Shown here in pieces: positions 5,298 through 43,772 of a DNA stretch of 64,000 nt (position 1 is its first letter; every line of letters starts with the position of its first letter). Made by a program: the position numbers and the translations under genes. The notes beneath the pieces were generated by a model. It searched no databases. It had not been told where the DNA came from and saw nothing but the letters and a program-made list of their open reading frames with translations. This DNA is from Patescibacteria group bacterium (GTDB taxonomy: Bacteria; Patescibacteriota; Minisyncoccia; Phycocordibacterales; JACOZG01). Where the stretch lies: assembly GCA_034658935.1 (NCBI GenBank), contig JAYEGE010000008.1, positions 68,678 through 132,677 of the forward strand, read 5' to 3'.

Positions 5298-8003
5298 ATG
5301 CCTCCATTCCATAATTTCACTACTAAAGCCAAGGAAGTGATCCGTAAGACTCACGAGTTAGCAATTGAACGTGGTCGAAACCAAGTTGGACCTATCCAGC
5401 TTTTGGCAGCTTTATTGCTCCAGGAGGAGAGCTCTTTTATTTCCATTCTCGATAAAATTGAGATTGACACCGTCATGTTGACTGACCACGTTATCGAGCA
5501 TCTAGATGGCGCGTCAGGTGGTGGCGGAGTTTCGTCAGCTCCCTATCAGATTTACATTACCCCCGAGCTGGTTAAGGTTTTCGAGACCTCAGTTAAGATC
5601 GCCGCTAATTTACAAGACGAGTTTGTTTCCACTGAGCATTTATTACTCGCTTTGCTAGAGACTCCCAATCAAGCTCACGAAATCTTGCAACGCTTCCGAG
5701 TAAGTAAGGACCAGATTTTGAAAGTGCTCCAAGACTTGCGTGACAATAAGGTCCATGAAGTTGATCAGCCAAAAAAGCTCCGGGCAATTGAGCGCTACAC
5801 CAAGAATCTGACCGAAATGGCCAGGCAAGATAAACTCGACCCCGTTATCGGTCGAGAAGCTGAGGTCCAACGTCTGATGGAGATCTTGTCTCGTCGGACA
5901 AAAAATAATCCTATCCTAATTGGAGAGGCTGGCACTGGTAAAACCGCGATTGCTGAGGGTCTAGCTATTAAGATTGCCAAGGCCGATGTTCCTGAATCTT
6001 TGCGAGAGAAGGAAGTAGTTTCCTTAGACTTGGGCTCTTTAATCGCTGGCACGAAGTATCGTGGTGAATTCGAAGATCGGTTAAAGAATGTCCTTAAGGA
6101 AATCGAGCGCTCGGGCAATAAGCTAATTCTCTTCATCGACGAGATCCATACTATTGTTGGCGCTGGTGCTGCCGAGGGGGCGATTGATGCTTCTAATATG
6201 TTGAAGCCAGCCTTGGCGCGCGGTGAACTCCGCGCTATTGGGGCAACTACGCTTAAGGAGTACCAAAAGCATATTGAACGAGATCAGGCCCTGACACGCC
6301 GCTTCCAACCTATCCATGTTGAGGAGCCTAGCGTTGATGACGCCATTGCTATTTTGCGGGGCTTGCAGGATAAGTATGAGTTTCATCACGGCATTCATAT
6401 TACCGATAAGGCCATTGTTGCGGCAGTTAAACTCTCTAGCCGTTATATTACTGACCGCTTCTTGCCCGACAAAGCAATTGATCTTATTGATGAGGCCTCT
6501 TCAGCTTTGCGCTTACAGCTTGAGAGTAAACCTCGCGAGTTGTCCGAGTCTGATATTAAAATTATGCGCCTCGAGGTGGAGAGGGAAGCCCTAAAGAAGG
6601 AGGTGGAAGTGAATAAGGACGCCAAGGCCAAGACCCGAATTAAAAAAATTGATAAAGAAATTAGTGATTTGCGTGAGAAGGTCAGCGAACTCGAACTCAA
6701 GTGGAAGAATGAGAAGGAGACCATTGGTGAGATTAAGACAATGAAGGGTGAGCTAGAGAGCTTGCGACTAGAGGCTGAACAGGCCGAGCTGCGTTCAGAC
6801 TTAGCCAAGGCCGCCGAGATTCGTTATGGCAAGCTCCCAACTATCCAAAAGAATCTGTCTTCACGAGAGACTCGCCTGAAGAAACTCCAACGTTCGCGAC
6901 GCCTACTTAAGGAAGAGGTGAATGAGGAGGAGATCGCTCAAGTGGTTGCTCGTTGGACCCACGTGCCAGTAACTAAGATGCTCGAGGGCGAGGTTGATCG
7001 CTTGGAGAGGATTGAAGAGGAGCTACGGAAACGAGTTCGTGGTCAAGATGAAGCAATCAAGAAAATCTCAGAAGCGGTTAAGCGTTCGCGCGCCGGTGTT
7101 TCTGATCCCGATAGGCCGATTGGCTCCTTCATGTTCTTGGGGCCAACAGGCGTTGGTAAGACAGAACTTGCCAGGGCGCTCGCCGCCTTCATGTTTGATG
7201 ACGAGAAGGCACTCGTCCGGGTGGACATGAGTGAATACATGGAGAAGTACTCGGTCTCTAAGATGATCGGCTCGCCGCCTGGCTATGTTGGTCATGAAGA
7301 AGGTGGGGCGCTTACTGAGACGGTCCGTCACCGCCCTTATTCTGTTCTCCTCTTCGACGAGATTGAGAAAGCTCATCCTGAAGTCTTTAATATCTTCCTC
7401 CAAGTATTAGATAATGGCCGCTTAACTGACGCTAAAGGGCGAGTGGTCAATTTCAAAAATACGATTATTTTGCTGACTTCTAATTTGGGGAGTGAGTATA
7501 TTAATCGTTTGCAACAACGAATCGGCTTTAATCAAAAAGATGGTGCCGAGTTGCCTGATCCAGAAGAGATGAAAGCTAAGATTCATGAGAGCCTAAAGAG
7601 TCATTTCCGTCCGGAGTTTTTGAATCGGCTTGACGACATTGTGATTTTCAATTCTCTTTCGGTAGAGCAGATTAAAGAGATCGTAGATATTCAATTAGAA
7701 TTGGTGCGCGAGCGTCTATCTCATAAATTAATCAAATTAGAAATTACCCCAGAAGCGAGGGGGTATTTGGCTCGCGAAGGTTATAGCGTCGAGTATGGTG
7801 TCCGCCCACTCAAGCGCTTGATCCAGACCAAGGTGCTTAATCAAGTCGCCGAGCTTATTATTGCCCGCAAGATTGATCGCGGTGGGGAGGTTTTGGTGAG
7901 AATGAAAGACGGCAAACTTGTGGTGGAACTAAAGAAAGCCTCCCGCACCCGCCGTGTCCGTTCAACTATCGACTCTCGCCCCGTAGCCGGGGGAGTAAAA
8001 TAA
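5298..8003 (+). CDS. clpB: ATP-dependent chaperone ClpB
   Basis: Two AAA+ modules (GEAGTGKT and GPTGVGKT Walker A) and a long coiled-coil middle domain. The N-domain is ClpB-like. Confidence 0.95.
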   Translation: MPPFHNFTTKAKEVIRKTHELAIERGRNQVGPIQLLAALLLQEESSFISILDKIEIDTVMLTDHVIEHLDGASGGGGVSSAPYQIYITPELVKVFETSVKIAANLQDEFVSTEHLLLALLETPNQAHEILQRFRVSKDQILKVLQDLRDNKVHEVDQPKKLRAIERYTKNLTEMARQDKLDPVIGREAEVQRLMEILSRRTKNNPILIGEAGTGKTAIAEGLAIKIAKADVPESLREKEVVSLDLGSLIAGTKYRGEFEDRLKNVLKEIERSGNKLILFIDEIHTIVGAGAAEGAIDASNMLKPALARGELRAIGATTLKEYQKHIERDQALTRRFQPIHVEEPSVDDAIAILRGLQDKYEFHHGIHITDKAIVAAVKLSSRYITDRFLPDKAIDLIDEASSALRLQLESKPRELSESDIKIMRLEVEREALKKEVEVNKDAKAKTRIKKIDKEISDLREKVSELELKWKNEKETIGEIKTMKGELESLRLEAEQAELRSDLAKAAEIRYGKLPTIQKNLSSRETRLKKLQRSRRLLKEEVNEEEIAQVVARWTHVPVTKMLEGEVDRLERIEEELRKRVRGQDEAIKKISEAVKRSRAGVSDPDRPIGSFMFLGPTGVGKTELARALAAFMFDDEKALVRVDMSEYMEKYSVSKMIGSPPGYVGHEEGGALTETVRHRPYSVLLFDEIEKAHPEVFNIFLQVLDNGRLTDAKGRVVNFKNTIILLTSNLGSEYINRLQQRIGFNQKDGAELPDPEEMKAKIHESLKSHFRPEFLNRLDDIVIFNSLSVEQIKEIVDIQLELVRERLSHKLIKLEITPEARGYLAREGYSVEYGVRPLKRLIQTKVLNQVAELIIARKIDRGGEVLVRMKDGKLVVELKKASRTRRVRSTIDSRPVAGGVK

Positions 8004-8231: not shown

Positions 8232-8314
8232 GCGTCGGTGGCGGAGTGGTCAATCGCAACAGACTGTAAATCTGTCGACTTATGTCTACGCAGGTTCGAA
8301 TCCTGCCCGGCGCA
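8232..8314 (+). tRNA. tRNA-Tyr (anticodon GTA), class II
   Basis: Acceptor GCGTCGG/CCGGCGC, anticodon loop CTGTAAA, long variable arm, T arm GCAGG-TTCGAAT-CCTGC. Confidence 0.85.
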
Positions 8315-8397
8315 CAATTTGACAATTAGTTTTAAATAGTATATTGTGAAGAGGGTCGGTTAGATATTTCCAAGGTTCAAAAAGAAAGGGAAGTGCC

Positions 8398-10054: not shown

Positions 10055-10125
10055 GGGTCCATAGTTCAATGGTAGAATAACGGTCTCCAAAACCGTCGAT
10101 CGAGGTTCGAATCCTCGTGGACCCG
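10055..10125 (+). tRNA. tRNA-Trp (anticodon CCA)
   Basis: Acceptor GGGTCCA/TGGACCC, anticodon arm ACGGT-CTCCAAA-ACCGT, T arm CGAGG-TTCGAAT-CCTCG. Confidence 0.85.
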
Positions 10126-10149
10126 CCCGCAGTGCCGTAGCGCAGCGAG

Positions 10150-12338: not shown

Positions 12339-12341
12339 TCA

Positions 12342-12413
12342 TGCTCTCGGCAGGAATCGAACCTGCATCACGAGCTCCGGAGGCCCGCGTTCTATCCGTT
12401 GAACTACGAGAGC
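12342..12413 (-). tRNA. tRNA-Arg (anticodon CCG)
   Basis: The reverse complement reads GCTCTCG..CGGGC-CTCCGGA-GCTCG..GCAGG-TTCGATT-CCTGC-CGAGAGC. It lies 4 nt upstream of the miaA start on the same strand. Confidence 0.8.
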
Positions 12414-12579
12414 AAGTCAACCACCCACATATGGAGTCTACCATTGAATCCCGACGTTCGCTTCGCTTCAGTCGGGACCCCGACCCCCATGCAAGGGCGT
12501 CGGGGCTACGAGAGCTTTTGTTGGTTTAGCCTATCAATTTTTTGCCTTTTTGCCCATTTTGGCCTAGAATTTCTTTTGA

Positions 12580-12661
12580 GCCGGGATGGCGGAATTGGTA
12601 GACGCGCACGACTCAAAATCGTGTGGGGCAACCCATGGGAGTTCGATTCTCCCTCCCGGCA
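12580..12661 (+). tRNA. tRNA-Leu (anticodon CAA), class II
   Basis: Acceptor GCCGGGA/TCCCGGC, anticodon arm CACGA-CTCAAAA-TCGTG, long variable arm, T arm GGGAG-TTCGATT-CTCCC. A TAGAAT -10-like hexamer sits about 10 nt upstream. Confidence 0.85.
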
Positions 12662-12709
12662 CTACGAAGTACACAGCACGCCCATCTGTTTATGTGTTAA
12701 AATAGTCCT

Positions 12710-13672
12710 ATGTCAGAAAGTCGTGCTAACGCTGTTTTTTGGATCGAAGTTGATAAGATTCGACCCAACCCCTTCCAACCTCGGAAGGAATTTGACGAGG
12801 ACAAGATCCAGACGCTGGCCGATTCTATTCGCCAATATGGTATTCTCCAGCCTCTAGTTGTGACCCGCCAGGAAGTGTCTCGAGAAGATGGTGGTATTGG
12901 AGTGGAATACGAGCTAATCGCTGGCGAACGTCGTTGGCGTGCCTCTCAGGTCGCTGGGATTTCTCAGGTACCAGCGGTGATTCGTGATAGTGAAGAAAGC
13001 GACAAGCTTAAATTGGAGATGGCGATTATCGAGAATCTTCAACGTGAAGATTTAAATCCAGTAGACCGAGCTCACGCTTTTCAACAATTAACTGAGCAAT
13101 TTGGCCTGAAGCATCATGAAGTGGGTAAGCGGGTAGGTAGGAGCCGTGAATATGTTTCTAATACTATCCGCATTGCCGCCCTTCCAGAAGAAATGCTCCA
13201 GGCCCTGGTGGAGGGGAAGATTAATGAAGGGCATACCAGGCCACTCTTGATGTTAAACGATAGACCCGAGCAACAACTGACCTTCTTCCAAGAGCTCTTA
13301 GTCAAGAAGATGACTGTTCGTGAAGCTGAGTCTATTGCTCGCCGTATTGCTTACGACAAGGTCCGAAAAAAAGACCATCTCATTGACCCACAAATTGTTG
13401 AGATTGAACAGCAATTAACCGAGCAATTGGGAACTCGTGTTCGGGTAGAGCGCAAGGATGTCGGCGGTAAGGTGCTAATAGATTTTTTCTCTCCCGATGA
13501 TCTAAGTGCTATCCTGAATCTACTCTCGGCCAGACAGCAAGTTACCAATCCGGCTCTGGAGCAAGCGGGGTTGGAAGAGTCAGTCGGCGAGGGTGAGGCA
13601 GTTGCCGAGGGGGCCAGCCAACCTGAAGAGGGAGAAGAAGGTCTTTACGATCTCAAAAATTTTTCTATCTAA
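12710..13672 (+). CDS. parB: ParB/Spo0J-family partition protein
   Basis: ParB N-terminal box (GERRWRAS), an HTH region and an acidic C-terminus. Confidence 0.85.
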   Translation: MSESRANAVFWIEVDKIRPNPFQPRKEFDEDKIQTLADSIRQYGILQPLVVTRQEVSREDGGIGVEYELIAGERRWRASQVAGISQVPAVIRDSEESDKLKLEMAIIENLQREDLNPVDRAHAFQQLTEQFGLKHHEVGKRVGRSREYVSNTIRIAALPEEMLQALVEGKINEGHTRPLLMLNDRPEQQLTFFQELLVKKMTVREAESIARRIAYDKVRKKDHLIDPQIVEIEQQLTEQLGTRVRVERKDVGGKVLIDFFSPDDLSAILNLLSARQQVTNPALEQAGLEESVGEGEAVAEGASQPEEGEEGLYDLKNFSI

Positions 13673-13799: not shown

Positions 13800-13940
13800 T
13801 CACGCAGTTCTTTCAAATAGGCTTAGAATCTTGAGACTAGCTTTTTGTAGCTCATATCGGGCTCCAAAGAGCCAGTCTCAAGACGAGACAGTCGCTTACC
13901 CACAGCGTTTGTGGGTGATTTAACAAAGGGAGGTATAACG

Positions 13941-14756
13941 ATGACGATTCGATCGATCACGCCCAACCGAACCCAGAGGCAAGAGAAACAGTACAAGCGA
14001 TTCGTCGGGGATGCGGGTGACCGCGGACTCGTCGAGGTGGATCCTGACAAGGACGCTATTCAACGGCTCATTAGTCGTGGCGGCGAGTTCCAGGGCCACC
14101 TGATCGCAGGCATTCGCCGGTTCTCGGCCGAGCAGACCGACTACACGCACGCGCAGTCTATCCTCGGTACGGACTTTATCATTCCCGAGGAGGTCATGGA
14201 AGCTCGTTCCGGCATCACCTACGCCGGCAGGCATCTGGCCTTCCTGGCGGAGACGATGCCGAGCGAGGAGAATCTGCGGTGGTGCAAGGACAACGGCTAC
14301 GCCGTCATGCCGGCACCGCCTAAGCCGATTGCACTTTTGCCCGTCCGTGCCCTCAAGCCTGCCAACTTCTATCTGAAGACCGGTGGATGGTATGCGGATG
14401 AAAGTGAGAAGTTTGCCTCAAGCGACAAGACCCGTCGGGGATGGCTCGCGGTTCGCAAGACCCTGGTGCCGAACTCGACCTCAAAGACTTGGGACGAACA
14501 AAACGAGCTCCTCTCGAGTGTCGAGGAGGTACCGAATGCGGCCGAGATGGCGTGGTTTATCACCACCTACTTCGACGTCCGTGGCATTCGTCTTTTCGAG
14601 GACATCTGGGTTCGTACTTCTAGCGTCGACTCGGACGGTAACCATGTCGACGTCGGCCATTTCGGCCAGGACGGTCTCCACGTCGGCGACGATTGGGATG
14701 ACGGGCGCAGTGGCAACGTCGGTGTGTCCTCTGCTCGGAAGTTTTCTGAGCCTTGA
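13941..14756 (+). CDS. DGR target (variable) protein with C-terminal variable repeat
   Basis: Strong SD (AAGGGAGG) 7 nt before the ATG at 13941. The last about 42 codons are the VR matching the downstream TR. The gene is GC-rich relative to its surroundings. The fold was not identified; the ligand-binding region may be C-type-lectin-like (inference). Confidence 0.75.
   Translation: MTIRSITPNRTQRQEKQYKRFVGDAGDRGLVEVDPDKDAIQRLISRGGEFQGHLIAGIRRFSAEQTDYTHAQSILGTDFIIPEEVMEARSGITYAGRHLAFLAETMPSEENLRWCKDNGYAVMPAPPKPIALLPVRALKPANFYLKTGGWYADESEKFASSDKTRRGWLAVRKTLVPNSTSKTWDEQNELLSSVEEVPNAAEMAWFITTYFDVRGIRLFEDIWVRTSSVDSDGNHVDVGHFGQDGLHVGDDWDDGRSGNVGVSSARKFSEP
14620..14744 (+). repeat. DGR variable repeat (VR)
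   Basis: 125 nt matching TR at 15213-15337 with 13 mismatches, 11 of them at TR adenines. The 3' 35 nt are identical to TR and are IMH-like. Confidence 0.85.
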
Positions 14757-15212: not shown

Positions 15213-15337
15213 CTAGCGTCAACTCGGATGGTAACCATGTCAACGTCGGCAATTTCGACCAGGACGGTCTCAACGTCAACGACTATTGGGATGACAAGCG
15301 CAATGGCAACATCGGTGTGTCCTCTGCTCGGAAGTTT
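15213..15337 (+). repeat. DGR template repeat (TR)
   Basis: Intergenic A-rich copy of VR. In the VR frame it reads as a run of AAC/AAT codons (SVNSDGNHVNVGNFDQDGLNVNDYWDDKRNGNIG). It is not part of any ORF. Confidence 0.85.
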
Positions 15338-15369: not shown

Positions 15370-15726
15370 TTAGTCTTTCTGTTGTTTGGAGGATTTAATC
15401 CAGCCACCAAGCATTCGTCCGATTTCATCCATAATTTCTTGGAGGGAGGTGTATTTCATGACATCGATGGATTTTGTGTCATGCGAGAGTCTGGCAAAGA
15501 TGCGAAGTAAGTTAAGCTTGATACTTACTTTATTCAAAACTGGCACCTTTTCAGTTCTAGGCATCGATGTTGCTTGTAGGATTCCCTCGATAATATCAAG
15601 CGAGGTATCTTCGCATCTCTGCCACAACGTATGTCTGTCTTGTTTAGGAACGGAAGCGCGGATATGATGTACAGTTTTATACAAATCATACACTTTTTTG
15701 AAAATCGGTATATCAAATTCATCCAT
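15370..15726 (-). CDS. avd: DGR accessory variability determinant (Avd), four-helix-bundle protein
   Basis: 118 aa. The C-terminal GRMLGGWIKSSKQQ closely resembles Bordetella phage Avd (GRILGSWIARVNRKGQ). It is adjacent to the TR and the RT. Confidence 0.75.
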   Translation of the reverse strand: MDEFDIPIFKKVYDLYKTVHHIRASVPKQDRHTLWQRCEDTSLDIIEGILQATSMPRTEKVPVLNKVSIKLNLLRIFARLSHDTKSIDVMKYTSLQEIMDEIGRMLGGWIKSSKQQKD

Positions 15727-16787
15727 GAGAACATTTGAACATATTTACAATCTGATAATTTCTCCCGAGAGCCTTTTCATTGCTTGGAAACGATTTAGCA
15801 GAGATAAACACAAAAAGAAAGATGTTCTGCAATTCGAGTGGAATTTGGAGCAAAACATTTTTGCATTGTGCCGAGAGCTGAAAAACAAAGTCTACCAGCA
15901 TGGACCATATACTGATTTTTACATTACTGACCCCAAACAACGACACATCCACAAGGCACTCGTTCGGGACAGGGTATTGCACCATTCGATTGTCCGCATA
16001 CTCACTCCGATCTTTGAACCAACATTTATCGCTAATTCTTTTTCTTGTCGAATTGGTAAAGGAACACACAAAGGAGTATTGATGGTGGAGAAAATGTTGC
16101 GCACGGTGAGTCGAAATAACACTAGAAGTTGCTACGTTCTTAAATGTGATATCAGGAGATTTTTTGACTCCATTGACCATAATATCCTGCTCAAAATGTT
16201 GGAGCAAAAAATTAAAGACCCAGCCGTGATGTGGCTCTTGGAAAGAATTGTCAGCAGTTACGAGAGAGAGGGAGAGAGAGAGGAAAAATTGCGCGGGGAA
16301 AGGGATACCCGTTGGCAATCTCACCTCCCAATTGTTTGCGAATATCTATATGAACAAGTTCGATCAGTTTGTAAAGCATGAATTGAGAACAAAATATTAC
16401 GCACGATATGCGGATGATTTCGTAATTATAGCAGATAATAGAGAAAAACTCGAGCGACTGGTGGTGCAAATCACAAACTTTCTTTCGGGCCAATTGGCGC
16501 TTTCGTTGCACCCGCATAAAGTTTCTATACAGGCATATACTTGCGGGGTAGATTTTCTGGGACAAATTATTTTTCCACATTACCGTCTACTTCGCGCCAA
16601 GACAAGAAAGAGAATCTTCAAGCAAATTAGACGTAAGGTTGAGCGATGCAACGATGGTTTAATTTCAGAGAAAACTTTGCACCATTCACTACAATCGTAT
16701 TTGGGCGTTCTCTCACATACCAATACATATGGGGATCTCAAGGAATTAAAAAATCAGGTTTGGTTTTGGTCCATAAAGGATAATTAG
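15725..16787 (+). CDS. DGR reverse transcriptase, reading frame interrupted in a (GA)n tract near 16262-16283
   Basis: The N-terminal part (15725-16381) has GPYTDFYITDPKQRHIHKAL and CRIGKGTHKGV. The second frame (16248-16787) has GKGIPVGNLTSQLFANIYMN and YADDFVII. The IGxxxSQ motif is diagnostic of DGR RTs versus group II intron RTs. Confidence 0.85.
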
Positions 16788-16876: not shown

Positions 16877-19105
16877 CTACTTTGTTAATTTATGCGGATT
16901 ATGGTTTGGACAAGATTTGCTGCTACATCTCTCGGGGATCGTTTTTGTGCCTTGCATCATTAGGGAGCCGCACATGGTGCAGAGGGCGCCGGTTGGCTTG
17001 GCCTTGATGGCGTTCTTACAGGTGGGGTAATTGGAACAAGAATAGAAGATACCGAAACGTCCACGTTTCTCGGTCATCTCGCCCGTCTGACTTATCCCCG
17101 ACAAGCCTTTTTTGCAGACTGGACATTTGACACCAGTCCTTTTGGCCTCTTCAGCAGCTTCATCTTTCTTTATGTATTTACATTTTGGATAATTCGCACA
17201 AGAGACAAAGGTGCCGAAACGTCCTTCGCGCTCAACGAGTTTTCCATTTTTGCACTCAGGGCAAGCCTCACCAGTTTCTTTGGGGGCCATTTCCTTACCT
17301 TCAAGTGTCTTGGCACCAGTACACTCTGGGAATTTAGCGCAGGAATAGAATTTGCCTGAGCGGCTCAATTTGATAATCATCGGGCCATCGCAGGTTGGAC
17401 ATTTCATATCATCAGGCGCTTCACCAAGATTGGTGATCTTTGGCATCTTCTTCTTGGAGGCGATCTCGAGAGTGAAGGGGCCGTAGAAATCTTTCAGAGT
17501 TTTTACATAGTCGCGTTTGCCGTCGGCGATCTCGTCGAGCTCGTTTTCCATCTCGCTAGTGAAGGAGTCGCTGATATAAGAGGCGAAATTATTTTCCAAG
17601 AACTCGCTTACAACATCACCGGTCTCAGTCGGCTTCAGGCTCCGGCTCTCTTTATCAACATAGCCACGGTCGATGATGGTCTTAATAGTTGGTGCGTAGG
17701 TAGAAGGTCGGCCAATGCCGCGCTTCTCCAGCTCTTTTACCAATCCCGCTTCAGTGTAGCGATTGGGCGGCAGGGTTTCCTTGCCCTCGCTATTTATTTC
17801 CTTTAGATCGAGTGTCTCACCTTCTTCAACCACAGGTAATTCTGTTTCTTCGCCTTTGGCCGCCGGATCAGCTTTGAGCCAACCATCGAAGGTGGTTATG
17901 GAGCCGTTGGTTTCGAAGTTCGGCAGGGCCGCGGTTTTAACATCTGATGTTTTGACCGCGGCAGCAATTATCAATTTTGTTCGCTTAATTTTGGCGTCAC
18001 TCATCTGGCTAGCCACGACACGCGACCAGATCAATTTATAGAGTTTTTGTTCCTGCGGTGTTTTGCCGGCGCTACTTACGTTGGCATGAGATGGTCGTAC
18101 TGCCTCATGGGCTTCTTGGGCACTCTTAGATTTTGCGGCGTAACGACGTGTTTGTAGGTGGTCGGTACCAAATTTGTCTTTGACTACTCTAGCAATTTCA
18201 CCCAAGGCCTGTTGGCTTAGGTTAGTGCTGTCGGTACGCATATAGGTGATATGCCCGGCCTCGTAGAGTTTTTGAGCTAAGCGCATAGTAATAGAGGGGG
18301 AGTAACCTAAGCGTGACGAGGCCGCTTGTTGGAGGGTGGAGGTAGTGAAAGGTGGGCGCGGTGAGCGTTTGGCCTCGGTTTGCTTCACTTCCTTAATTTG
18401 CCATTTAGCTTTTTTGGCTTCAGTAACGATTTGCTCAGCTTCTTCACCCGCTTTCGGTTCTTCTGTGCAATGGGCCGGAAGCTCCTCCTTCTTGCTTGTC
18501 GCAAATAGTCCGTCGATTACCCAGAACTTCTCTGGGATGAAGGCGCGGATTTCTCGCTCGCGCTCAACCAAGATGCGGAGGGCGGGGGACTGAACGCGGC
18601 CGGCCGAGAGGCCATAGCGGAGCTTCTGCCATATTAGCCCAGACAGGTCGTAGCCGAAGAGTCGGTCAAGGACTCTCCTTGCTTCTTGGGCCTTCAATAG
18701 ATCCTCATCGATATCGCGTGGGTGCTTCATTGCTTCTTGCACTGCCCCCTCGGTGATTTCGTTGAAGGTGATCCGCTTGGTCTTAGATTTAGGTAATTTT
18801 AAGACTTCAGCGACGTGCCAGGCGATGGCTTCTCCTTCGCGGTCAGGGTCTGTGGCCAGGACTATTTCCTCCGCCTTTTTTGCCTTTTCTTTAAGTTCAG
18901 AAACGATCTTCTCTTTACCTTTGCTGATTTCGTAATGAGGAATAAAGCCGCCCTCGATATCGATGGCGTTCTTGTTTGATTTTGGTAAGTCGCGGACGTG
19001 CCCAACTGAGGCACGGACTGTGTATTCGTTATTTAAATATTTCTCAATTGTCTTCGCTTTGGCGGGCGACTCAACAATTAATAATTTGTTTGTTTTGTTT
19101 GGCAT
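16877..19105 (-). CDS. topA: DNA topoisomerase I
   Basis: TOPRIM start MPNKTNKLLIVESPAKAKTI, the catalytic core and multiple C-terminal Cys4 zinc ribbons. The start is taken at the internal ATG (19105) of the longer ORF. Confidence 0.9.
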   Translation of the reverse strand: MPNKTNKLLIVESPAKAKTIEKYLNNEYTVRASVGHVRDLPKSNKNAIDIEGGFIPHYEISKGKEKIVSELKEKAKKAEEIVLATDPDREGEAIAWHVAEVLKLPKSKTKRITFNEITEGAVQEAMKHPRDIDEDLLKAQEARRVLDRLFGYDLSGLIWQKLRYGLSAGRVQSPALRILVEREREIRAFIPEKFWVIDGLFATSKKEELPAHCTEEPKAGEEAEQIVTEAKKAKWQIKEVKQTEAKRSPRPPFTTSTLQQAASSRLGYSPSITMRLAQKLYEAGHITYMRTDSTNLSQQALGEIARVVKDKFGTDHLQTRRYAAKSKSAQEAHEAVRPSHANVSSAGKTPQEQKLYKLIWSRVVASQMSDAKIKRTKLIIAAAVKTSDVKTAALPNFETNGSITTFDGWLKADPAAKGEETELPVVEEGETLDLKEINSEGKETLPPNRYTEAGLVKELEKRGIGRPSTYAPTIKTIIDRGYVDKESRSLKPTETGDVVSEFLENNFASYISDSFTSEMENELDEIADGKRDYVKTLKDFYGPFTLEIASKKKMPKITNLGEAPDDMKCPTCDGPMIIKLSRSGKFYSCAKFPECTGAKTLEGKEMAPKETGEACPECKNGKLVEREGRFGTFVSCANYPKCKYIKKDEAAEEAKRTGVKCPVCKKGLSGISQTGEMTEKRGRFGIFYSCSNYPTCKNAIKAKPTGALCTMCGSLMMQGTKTIPERCSSKSCPNHNPHKLTK

Positions 19106-19200
19106 GTACTTGTTAGAGCACATTAGTACTATGTATCCACATTTTTTGCAAATAGAAGATAGAAAAGGCCGCCCCGAAGTGGGGCGGCTGACGTTTCCGT

Positions 19201-20064
19201 TCATCCAAAGTATTCTTGTCGCGGTGGGCCGAGGCGAACAAGTTCGCAGAGCTTGGCTAAACCGGCAAGGAGGGTTAATTGATCGGTTCCCGCATCAATA
19301 TTGTGTGAGGATAGTGTGTAGCCTCTGTCCGGCCTCTCCGCCCCCATTGCTCGGCGATCTTCTCCCGGCCCAAGGGTGCAGGCGCTACCCGGTATTCGTA
19401 ACATAAGCCATTTTCCTCGCTGACACGATGCCTCGAAATCCCAATGACGGCCTGTATGCGGGGTGCCTGTAGAACACATCTTGGCATCAGCCTGGATCAT
19501 GGCAAGCTTGATGGGGATCAGGCGTGCTTCGTCGGGGCAATGAGCTAACCACCGAATTATAGCAGGCGATAGATCGACATCGAAGCCGGCAGCTTCCCTG
19601 CCGATTCCTGCACCTAAGCCGTTAATGAGCAGGAGTTGGTTGCCGGTGGCGCCGGTGTTACCTTCCCAATACAATAGGTTCCCGAGAAGGAGTTCCAGGG
19701 TGGAGCGAATGCATCGCATTATCGTCAAGCCTTTGACTCTGGCTTTGTCTGGAGAATGGATAGTCAATAGGGTGGGCAATTCAAAATTCCAACCTTGCCA
19801 GTTTTCGGGATCATCCTCTTCCATTGGTGAAAGCACCTCGCTGAAACCCCATGCCCGGCTTTTTTCAGGTGGTACGAAGTCGGGCAAATCGAATCGTTCT
19901 TGCCGATGTCTGATTCCGGCTGCACCAGAGCGTAAGTAGCTAATCAATGCAGGCCAGACTGCCCAATGAATTCTAATCCCGATTGTTTGCCCCTTGGACC
20001 CAAGAGTTAACTCATACCAAGCCGGACGGTCCTGGCGAACCAAGGCCGTAGAGTTTATGGTCAT
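19201..20064 (-). CDS. hypothetical protein, GC-rich relative to neighbours
   Basis: 287-aa ORF with no recognisable family. Possible Rossmann-like GLGAGIG. It is followed by its own hairpin plus T-run terminator at 19140-19187. Confidence 0.5.
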   Translation of the reverse strand: MTINSTALVRQDRPAWYELTLGSKGQTIGIRIHWAVWPALISYLRSGAAGIRHRQERFDLPDFVPPEKSRAWGFSEVLSPMEEDDPENWQGWNFELPTLLTIHSPDKARVKGLTIMRCIRSTLELLLGNLLYWEGNTGATGNQLLLINGLGAGIGREAAGFDVDLSPAIIRWLAHCPDEARLIPIKLAMIQADAKMCSTGTPHTGRHWDFEASCQRGKWLMLRIPGSACTLGPGEDRRAMGAERPDRGYTLSSHNIDAGTDQLTLLAGLAKLCELVRLGPPRQEYFG

Positions 20065-43698: not shown

Positions 43699-43772
43699 TG
43701 GTGGACCTACGGGGAGTCGAACCCCGGCTTCATCCATGCCATGGACGTGTGATACCGTTTCACCATAGGCCC
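43699..43772 (-). tRNA. tRNA-Ala (anticodon GGC), CCA encoded
   Basis: The reverse complement reads GGGCCTA.. with a G3:U70 pair, anticodon loop ATGGCAT and T arm CCGGGGTTCGACTCCCCG. A hairpin terminator follows at 43660-43698. Confidence 0.8.

Follow-up and report, generated by a model that had tools for sequence, protein, structure and literature searches.

The 64-kb window (the whole stretch of 64,000 nucleotides (nt) of contig JAYEGE010000008.1, from a Patescibacteria group bacterium, that was analysed) carries a diversity-generating retroelement (DGR) whose reverse transcriptase (RT) gene is split between two reading frames at a GA dinucleotide tract. The cassette is arranged in the order target gene, template repeat (TR), avd on the reverse strand and RT (Table 1). 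All the hallmarks by which a DGR is recognized are present, including RT motifs of the DGR clade, an adenine-biased pair of TR and variable region (VR) with the VR at the 3' end of the target gene, and an adjacent Avd. The VR ends 12 nt ahead of the stop codon of the target open reading frame (ORF), which had no Pfam match, and TR and VR differ at 13 positions, 11 of which are adenines and 2 thymines in the TR. In its present split state the RT gene of the window encodes no full-length RT.

The N-terminal half of the RT is read from an ORF at 15725..16381 (position modulo 3 of 2), which runs out of frame past 16261 until its stop at 16381, and the C-terminal half from an ORF at 16248..16787 (position modulo 3 of 0), at +1 relative to the N-half. 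Starting from a gene in frame, such an offset would follow from the insertion of 1 nt, the loss of 2 nt or the gain of 4 nt. An alignment of 120 orthologues supports the N frame through ...IVSSY (16261) and the C frame from KNCAGKGIPVGN (16284), and the frame change is therefore confined to 16262-16288, that is, to the GA tract and the A5 run. The original prediction, made from the letters of the DNA, that a DGR RT is split between frames at or beside a GA repeat was borne out by the ORFs, the RVT_1 matches, the +1 offset and the orthologue alignment. Its narrower placement of the switch inside the tract stands insofar as the bounded segment includes the tract, the adjacent A5 run being another possible site.

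A single-ORF RT of 352-354 amino acids (aa) overall would be restored by the gain of one GA unit (354 aa), the loss of two GA units, or the loss of one A from the A5 run (353 aa); orthologous RTs are typically 349-360 aa long, and the top protein matches mostly 349 aa. No other stop or shift occurs across the 344 codons of the two halves, and all catalytic motifs are intact, including the DGR-type motif 4 KNCAGKGIPVGNLTSQ at 16296-16331 (GIPVGNLTSQ at 16302-16331) and the catalytic YADD at 16407-16418. The tract is the sole dinucleotide repeat that Tandem Repeats Finder (TRF) reports in the window; its longest perfect run is 11 nt (16272-16282), and the 11-mer GAGAGAGAGAG is present once against 0.03 expected. 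Exact look-ups of the two half-ORFs gave no match because gene callers had picked other starts. The exact look-up of Avd led to a contig of the Logan assembly of SRR26901924, which is 100% identical to the window over 7,130 bp, tract included.

Table 1. Features of the DGR cassette, in positions of the window.
Feature	Position	Strand	Remarks
DGR target gene	13911..14756	+	281-aa ORF; start placed at 13941 by the gene caller on the identical Logan contig
Variable region (VR)	14620-14744	+	125 nt, at the 3' end of the target ORF; 90% identity to TR
Template repeat (TR)	15213-15337	+	forms the TR/VR pair
avd (accessory variability determinant)	15370..15726	-	Pfam bAvd PF22296, E=1.9e-17; divergent from RT
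RT N-terminal half, correct frame	15725..16261	+	motifs 1-3, ends ...LLERIVSSY; RVT_1 profile 10-100; orthologue alignment
GA tract GAGAGAGAGGGAGAGAGAGAGG	16262-16283	+	imperfect (GA)10.5, A>G at 16271; proposed contingency repeat
A5 run	16284-16288	+	directly 3' of the tract; alternative site for a 1-nt indel
RT C-terminal half, correct frame	16284..16787	+	motif 4, YADD, thumb, stop 16785-16787; RVT_1 profile 111-205

Repeats at the position of the window tract were found in 35 other RT loci (loci are cited below by handles beginning with L and orthologous proteins by handles beginning with P). A frame-blind DNA pattern, composed of GAGAGAGAG, a gap of 15-45 nt and GGNAAYYTNAC, was scanned over GTDB with one genome per species; among the first 120 matches listed were 24 DGR-type RT loci, every one of which (24/24) had a (GA)n tract of 10-71 nt, mostly perfect, at the same loop. 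Their hosts comprised DPANN archaea and bacteria of the Candidate Phyla Radiation (CPR), namely Woesearchaeota, Nanoarchaeota, Wolfebacteria, Harrisonbacteria, Berkelbacteria, Uhrbacteria, Giovannonibacteria and Peribacteria, together with Saccharibacteria-labelled and unclassified Patescibacteria metagenome-assembled genomes (MAGs), one Bdellovibrionales MAG and one MAG labelled Gammaproteobacteria. Eight loci were in frame, 10 at +1 and 6 at -1. In all 16 out-of-frame loci both halves were intact, with no other stops or shifts, and the frame switch mapped to the tract; the N frame stopped no more than about 100 nt past the tract and the C frame opened merely 6-107 nt before it. Furthermore, (Arg-Glu)n runs that vary in length occupy precisely this loop in about 14 of the 120 best intact orthologues.

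A control scan of metagenome contigs used the GIPIGNLTSQ motif pattern alone, so that repeat-bearing and repeat-free loci were sampled alike, and 110 of the first 120 loci listed had enough upstream sequence for frame assignment. A GA tract of at least 9 nt lay at the loop in 11 of the 110, of which 3 were in frame, 5 stood at +1 and 3 at -1. A further six loci were out of frame, and each was broken at another simple repeat. Two of these repeats lay at the same loop, (AGAC)15.5 in L125 and G10 in L165, and the other four were (GA)n tracts at a second loop. A census of repeats added (CAGT)11, (CAGC)13.5 and another G10 at the first loop, and at the second four GA tracts, all in frame, and two runs of G11. 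Overall, 24 of the 110 control loci bear a repeat in either loop, and 14 of these are out of frame, as against none of the 86 repeat-free loci broken at the junction (Fisher p=1e-11), 81 of which have a single-ORF RT. Unrelated lesions elsewhere in the RT gene, present in about 5 of the 110 sampled loci, give the background level of decay. When the repeat-bearing loci of both samples are pooled, 18 are in frame and 30 out of frame, a split compatible with one third being in frame (p=0.54); the counts for GA at the loop between motifs 3 and 4 are 11 in frame, 15 at +1 and 9 at -1. Repeats of at least 15 nt number 20 in 123 kb of RT genes and 1 in 497 kb of flanking DNA, an 81-fold difference in density. 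The only long repeat outside an RT gene is an (AGAC)12 in L123 (5882-5931), which is intergenic, downstream of an RT that carries no repeat and about 120 nt upstream of a 253-aa ORF.

Other units occupying the loop of the window tract (L125, L122, L174, L165, L240, L225) are (AGAC)15.5, (CAGT)11, (CAGC)13.5, G10 and GA followed by G11. The second hotspot is a loop between motif 2 (GKGTH) and motif 3 (YxLKCDI), 169-216 nt upstream of the GN codons of GNLTSQ, where GA is found in L188, L189, L204, L224, L130, L177, L190 and L215 and G11 in L186 and L222. These RTs belong to a more distant DGR RT clade, with about 38-42% identity to the RT of the window, and 4 of the 10 are out of frame there. 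On a coarse neighbour-joining (NJ) tree of the C-half, poly-G replaces GA in neighbouring branches and there are at least 15 gains or losses of GA tracts, a count that is a rough indication. That one site holds different repeat units, and that poly-G takes the place of GA, points to selection acting on mutability itself, and not on a specific peptide or RNA motif.

A TA, usually as TAA or TAG, very often stands right after the GA tract (e.g. L014, L025, L031, L057, L105, L147, L166, L172, L244). With ...GAGTAA or ...GAGTAG after the tract, one of the two out-of-frame (OFF) readings stops at once, and the in-frame (ON) reading is R-V-N or E-S-K; this may reflect shared ancestry in a subclade or a designed stop. 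Two loci have repeats about 12-20 nt upstream of the RT start codon, (TG)13 in L134 (oriented 18-44) and (TGTCC)7.6 in L196 (oriented 6946-6984), and these could be promoter or 5' untranslated region repeats that control the RT in another way. Note also that in L219 and L137 the tblastn alignment runs through an in-frame stop codon in the RT C-half, which may represent an alternative genetic code of the hosts or a point lesion.

Polymorphism in repeat number between otherwise identical sequences occurs in three related lineages, and in two of them a difference of one GA unit toggles the RT between intact and truncated. The first lineage was drawn from the 90%-identity cluster of orthologue P0014, which holds full-length RTs whose loop reads ERES, ERERES or ERERERES and also N-halves of 159-199 aa ending in ...ERERER-VKNLAPK and a stop, with separately called 143-aa C-halves. 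Tracts of 11, 17 and 23 nt in this lineage go with an intact RT (354-358 aa) and tracts of 19 and 25 nt with a split one. L247 (GCA_013328915.1, 23 nt, intact 358-aa RT) and L244 (GCA_013328875.1, 25 nt, split) have no mismatches over 4,583 bp and one 2-nt gap, and three assemblies agree on the 25-nt allele. In the second lineage, L251 (ENA ERZ27247358, 23 nt, intact 356-aa RT) and L025 (a Patescibacteria MAG, 25 nt, split) are separated by 1 substitution in 4,542 bp and a 2-nt gap. In the third, L100 (a Giovannonibacteria MAG) and L252 (SRR13727534) have no mismatches over 1,962 bp and an 8-nt tract difference of four units; these are two split alleles, one in each OFF frame. A further candidate pair, L006 and L179, was dropped as a same-strain comparison, being only about 89% identical.

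Lineages with a split RT carry marks of recent mutagenesis. L245 and L246 come from two other runs and share the 25-nt allele of L244. Over 2.8 kb they differ from L244 at 21 positions, each of which is a VR site matched by an adenine in the TR, and the TRs of the three are identical. The sole substitution between L025 and L251 is likewise in the VR at a TR adenine. In the genome loci whose RT is out of frame, 221 of 229 TR/VR mismatches are at adenines, and in those whose RT is in frame, 98 of 107; the script took the most adenine-biased repeat pair in both frame classes alike. Changes limited to VR adenines imply that mutagenesis was more recent than any background substitution, even with the consensus RT split, and the split RT genes of these lineages appear not to be dead.

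At the protein level, the repeat encodes a segment that stands as an insertion of 18 residues against the Bordetella DGR RT (PDB 8ub7), to which the ON-allele relative P0126 matches with E=5e-48, and the second hotspot is also an indel site. In the AlphaFold model of the ON allele P0009 (mean predicted local distance difference test (pLDDT) of 88.2), residues 181-200, the repeat loop, are the only low-confidence stretch. A (GA)n tract encodes alternating Glu and Arg in all three frames and never a stop, and the tetranucleotide units are also stop-free on the sense strand.

We consider it likely that the GA tract is a slipped-strand, simple-sequence contingency switch on the mutator enzyme of the DGR, and that this switch is OFF in the window. 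GA units would be gained or lost by slipped-strand mispairing in DNA replication, in the loop that connects RT motif 3 with the GxPxGNLTSQ motif, and a change in unit number would shift the catalytic C-half (motif 4, YADD and thumb) into or out of the frame of the N-half. The loop would tolerate an insert of any length; given such tolerance and a stop-free (GA)n, one tract length in three would yield a functional RT, and the remaining lengths an N-half that is truncated and has no catalytic activity. In the window, the C-half at +1 would represent the OFF state, and one more GA unit or two fewer would give one RT. The OFF state would freeze the current variant of the target protein and the ON state would resume mutagenesis, a putative toggle between exploration and exploitation. 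We also lean toward the broader reading that the DGR RTs in CPR bacteria as well as DPANN archaea have repeatedly acquired hypermutable repeats (GA, AGAC, CAGT, CAGC and poly-G) in two insertion-tolerant loops, so that the whole generator would be phase-variable. Switching may be frequent and reversible within a clonal population, the indirect evidence being the fresh adenine-specific VR changes in lineages with an OFF consensus RT. The tract of the window may still slip; since it is interrupted by the A>G change, the window copy may be a slow switch or one recently locked off.

Several points weigh against a contingency switch, some for the window copy and some for the family. The perfect runs of the window tract are just 9 and 11 nt, and slippage should be much rarer in them than in the perfect 15-70-nt tracts of relatives. 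The A5 run could be the indel site instead of the GA tract, and the two TR/VR mismatches at thymines fall outside the adenine specificity of the system. There is no ON allele of the lineage in the protein collection, where the best full-length match is 64% identical, and the Logan assembly probably derives from the same reads as the window, so that both represent one sample of the lineage. For the family, the combination of the same OFF length with different VRs in L244 and L245 fits leaky expression as well as rapid switching; both scans, of GTDB and of the metagenome contigs, took the first matches listed and are not random samples; and reversibility and rates are deduced from sequence, with a possible contribution of slippage at the RNA level.

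Decay of the window copy is the rival that survives best, and we regard it as rather unlikely. It holds that the RT is a pseudogene, a once-functional switch whose tract became interrupted and whose gene is permanently off and starting to decay. The interrupted tract, with a longest perfect run of 11 nt, the two non-adenine mismatches and the lack of an ON allele on record for the lineage all agree with this account, and the lesions found elsewhere in about 5 of 110 sampled RTs indicate that real decay occurs in the family. However, the absence of a second lesion across 344 codons, with motifs, avd, TR and VR intact, argues against long-standing decay. Moreover, 11 of the 13 TR/VR mismatches are at adenines, and L187, whose tract is equally interrupted, is in frame. 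Neither further lesions nor loss of motifs, as expected of a decaying pseudogene, were seen in the RT of the window or in the 16 out-of-frame genome loci. Mismatches away from adenines are common in CPR DGRs (Wu et al., PMC5758913).

A quite improbable alternative is recoding at the RNA level, in which slippage of RNA polymerase on (GA)n or a 2-nt shift of the ribosome would give full-length RT from any DNA frame; it could also act beside a DNA switch, as leakiness. After a shift of +/-2, perfect pairing of GAG and AGA is regained, the uniform distribution of frames looks as if the DNA frame were unselected, and L244 and L245/L246 share an out-of-frame length yet differ in freshly mutagenised VRs. 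In some loci the tract is also followed immediately by a GC-rich hairpin, or begins exactly where a hairpin ends, arrangements that resemble known slippage stimulators. Against recoding, the direction of the shift is variable (+1, -1 and in frame are all common), the canonical slippery heptamer is absent and most loci are without hairpins. Furthermore, the length alleles are seen directly in DNA, and the tetranucleotide repeats AGAC, CAGT and CAGC, classic units of DNA slippage, occur in the same loop; RNA-level slippage is not known to occur on these units.

Folding of 36 loci against shuffles gave a mean z of -0.8 downstream and -0.4 upstream of the tract. A conserved hairpin beside the tract was considered as a stimulator, and is clear in a subset only (L006/L179, L009/L207/L088, L105, L151, L187, L047). 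The GC-rich hairpins right after the tract, for which L224 is also listed, differ in sequence (e.g. TTGCGC-tgc-GCGCAA and CAGCC-ttcg-GGCTG), and one subclade has an 8-bp hairpin whose end coincides with the start of the tract (GATTTTCG-tag-CGAAAATC). Such flanking hairpins might modulate slippage. A canonical programmed ribosomal frameshift is rejected because of the unfixed direction, the variable repeat unit and the restriction of hairpins to a subset.

It is very unlikely that the frameshift is a sequencing or assembly error in a low-complexity tract, with a true gene that is in frame. Dinucleotide repeats are prone to stutter in the polymerase chain reaction (PCR), but a tract of 22 nt is far below usual short-read lengths and assembler k-mer sizes, the second assembly is identical over 7.1 kb, and the 25-nt allele of another lineage has the same length in three assemblies. 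The same kind of break, moreover, affects 30 of the 48 loci with a repeat, which stem from unrelated projects, as against 0 of the 86 without one. Finally, that the RT is naturally split, with two halves (both intact ORFs) translated separately and assembling into an active enzyme, is scarcely credible given the single ORF of 81 of the 86 repeat-free loci and the 349 aa of most top protein matches, the coexistence of in-frame and out-of-frame alleles in one lineage, a C-frame that opens 6-107 nt before the tract without a conserved start, and gene callers that begin the C-half at an internal Met past GNLTSQ.

Of the three causes originally proposed for the split, slipped-strand phase variation is thus strongly favoured by repeats in the same loop of dozens of RTs, even frames and alleles that differ by whole units. 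A sequencing or assembly indel can be set aside as unlikely, with two identical assemblies and a pattern that recurs across many independent ones. Pseudogenisation is not supported for the family and keeps some plausibility for the window copy, with its interrupted tract, one sample and no ON allele. A stable pseudogene had been envisaged if orthologues lacked any GA tract; orthologues do have GA tracts at this site. Beyond that prediction, the feature is widespread, occurs with other repeat units and extends to a second loop.

The surroundings of the cassette are chromosomal. The DGR lies between parB with two flanking tRNAs on one side and topoisomerase I (16877..19204, reverse strand) on the other, which indicates a chromosomal and not a phage context. 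A scan of IMG/VR gave 2 matches, one of which was not an RT; in the other, GAGAGAGAG was only 9 nt long and in frame. With viral contigs essentially lacking the feature, a phage origin was rejected. A CATG palindrome at 15724-15727 forms the overlapping divergent start codons of avd (reverse strand) and RT (forward strand), so that the two genes have no intergenic space for a promoter. An inverted repeat at 13829-13883 (23-nt arms, 87% complementary, 9-nt loop), which may be a terminator or operator, lies in the interval from parB (12710..13672) to the DGR target gene. The only Rfam families in the window are eight tRNA genes (149-618, 8232-8315, 10055-10127, 12341-12662, 43699-43772).

Repeat-mediated phase variation and DGRs are each already well known. 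A repeat switch in a DGR RT, or any cis-encoded on/off switch of a DGR, was not found in the searchable literature, which did not cover the main CPR DGR survey (Paul et al. 2017, Nat Microbiol). The natural on/off control of DGR mutagenesis is largely unexplained, and continuous mutagenesis would destroy useful variants. A heritable, reversible and cis-encoded switch in the RT would, if true, be a concrete answer in CPR and DPANN, where DGRs are most abundant, and would be of interest to both DGR and CPR/DPANN biology. One mechanism of hypervariation (slipped-strand phase variation) would control another (retroelement-guided hypermutation). This would amount to second-order control of evolvability, in which populations alternate stochastically and heritably between mutagenising (explore) and frozen (exploit) states, with about two thirds of natural populations OFF at any time. 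DGR surveys routinely drop elements with premature stops or truncated RTs as inactive, and more than half of DGR candidates were discarded by Wu et al. (PMC5758913). A filter that rejects 'frameshifted' RTs would have removed OFF alleles, and if two thirds of repeat-bearing RTs are merely OFF, the prevalence and activity of DGRs would be underestimated in these lineages. Repeat length could then mark the state of a DGR in metagenomic time series.

The order target, TR, avd (reverse) and RT appears to correspond to the B3 architecture, which is typical of CPR DGRs (Wu et al., PMC5758913). Like the DGR of Bordetella phage BPP-1 (bRT-Avd-TR-mtd, PDB 8ub7), the window DGR combines an RT with I/LGxxxSQ and YxDD motifs, an Avd and an adenine-specific TR/VR pair at the 3' end of the target. 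The BPP-1 bRT differs in having no insertion at the loop (an 18-residue gap in the alignment) and no repeat.

Genes expressed by programmed frameshifting or transcriptional slippage, such as dnaX, prfB and the transposases of insertion sequence (IS) elements, resemble the split RT in that two overlapping frames are joined for a full-length protein at a repetitive junction. They have, however, a fixed direction, a conserved slippery motif and stimulators, whereas in the DGR RTs the three frames are about equal, the unit varies and the alleles are in DNA. Another likeness is found in phasevarions, the phase-variable Mod DNA methyltransferases, where a repeat acts as an on/off switch in an enzyme that governs many downstream phenotypes, one level above the phenotype itself; in the DGR the effect would be hypermutation of the VR of one target gene and not epigenetic control of a regulon. 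Contingency loci of host-adapted bacteria include intragenic poly-G tracts in Neisseria and Campylobacter, tetranucleotides in Haemophilus, and CT/GA dinucleotide repeats in genes for outer-membrane proteins of Helicobacter pylori, among them oipA and hopZ. They differ from the DGR switch in several respects: the latter would strike the mutator enzyme of a second diversification system and not a surface antigen or restriction-modification gene, its repeat lies mid-gene in a loop of the catalytic domain and not near the 5' end, and its hosts are uncultivated CPR bacteria and DPANN archaea. The two share a tandem repeat within an ORF, where a change in unit number toggles the frame. In both, ON and OFF alleles are seen in DNA that is otherwise identical, the units are of several types (dinucleotide, tetranucleotide and homopolymer), and the frames in sequenced genomes are near-random.

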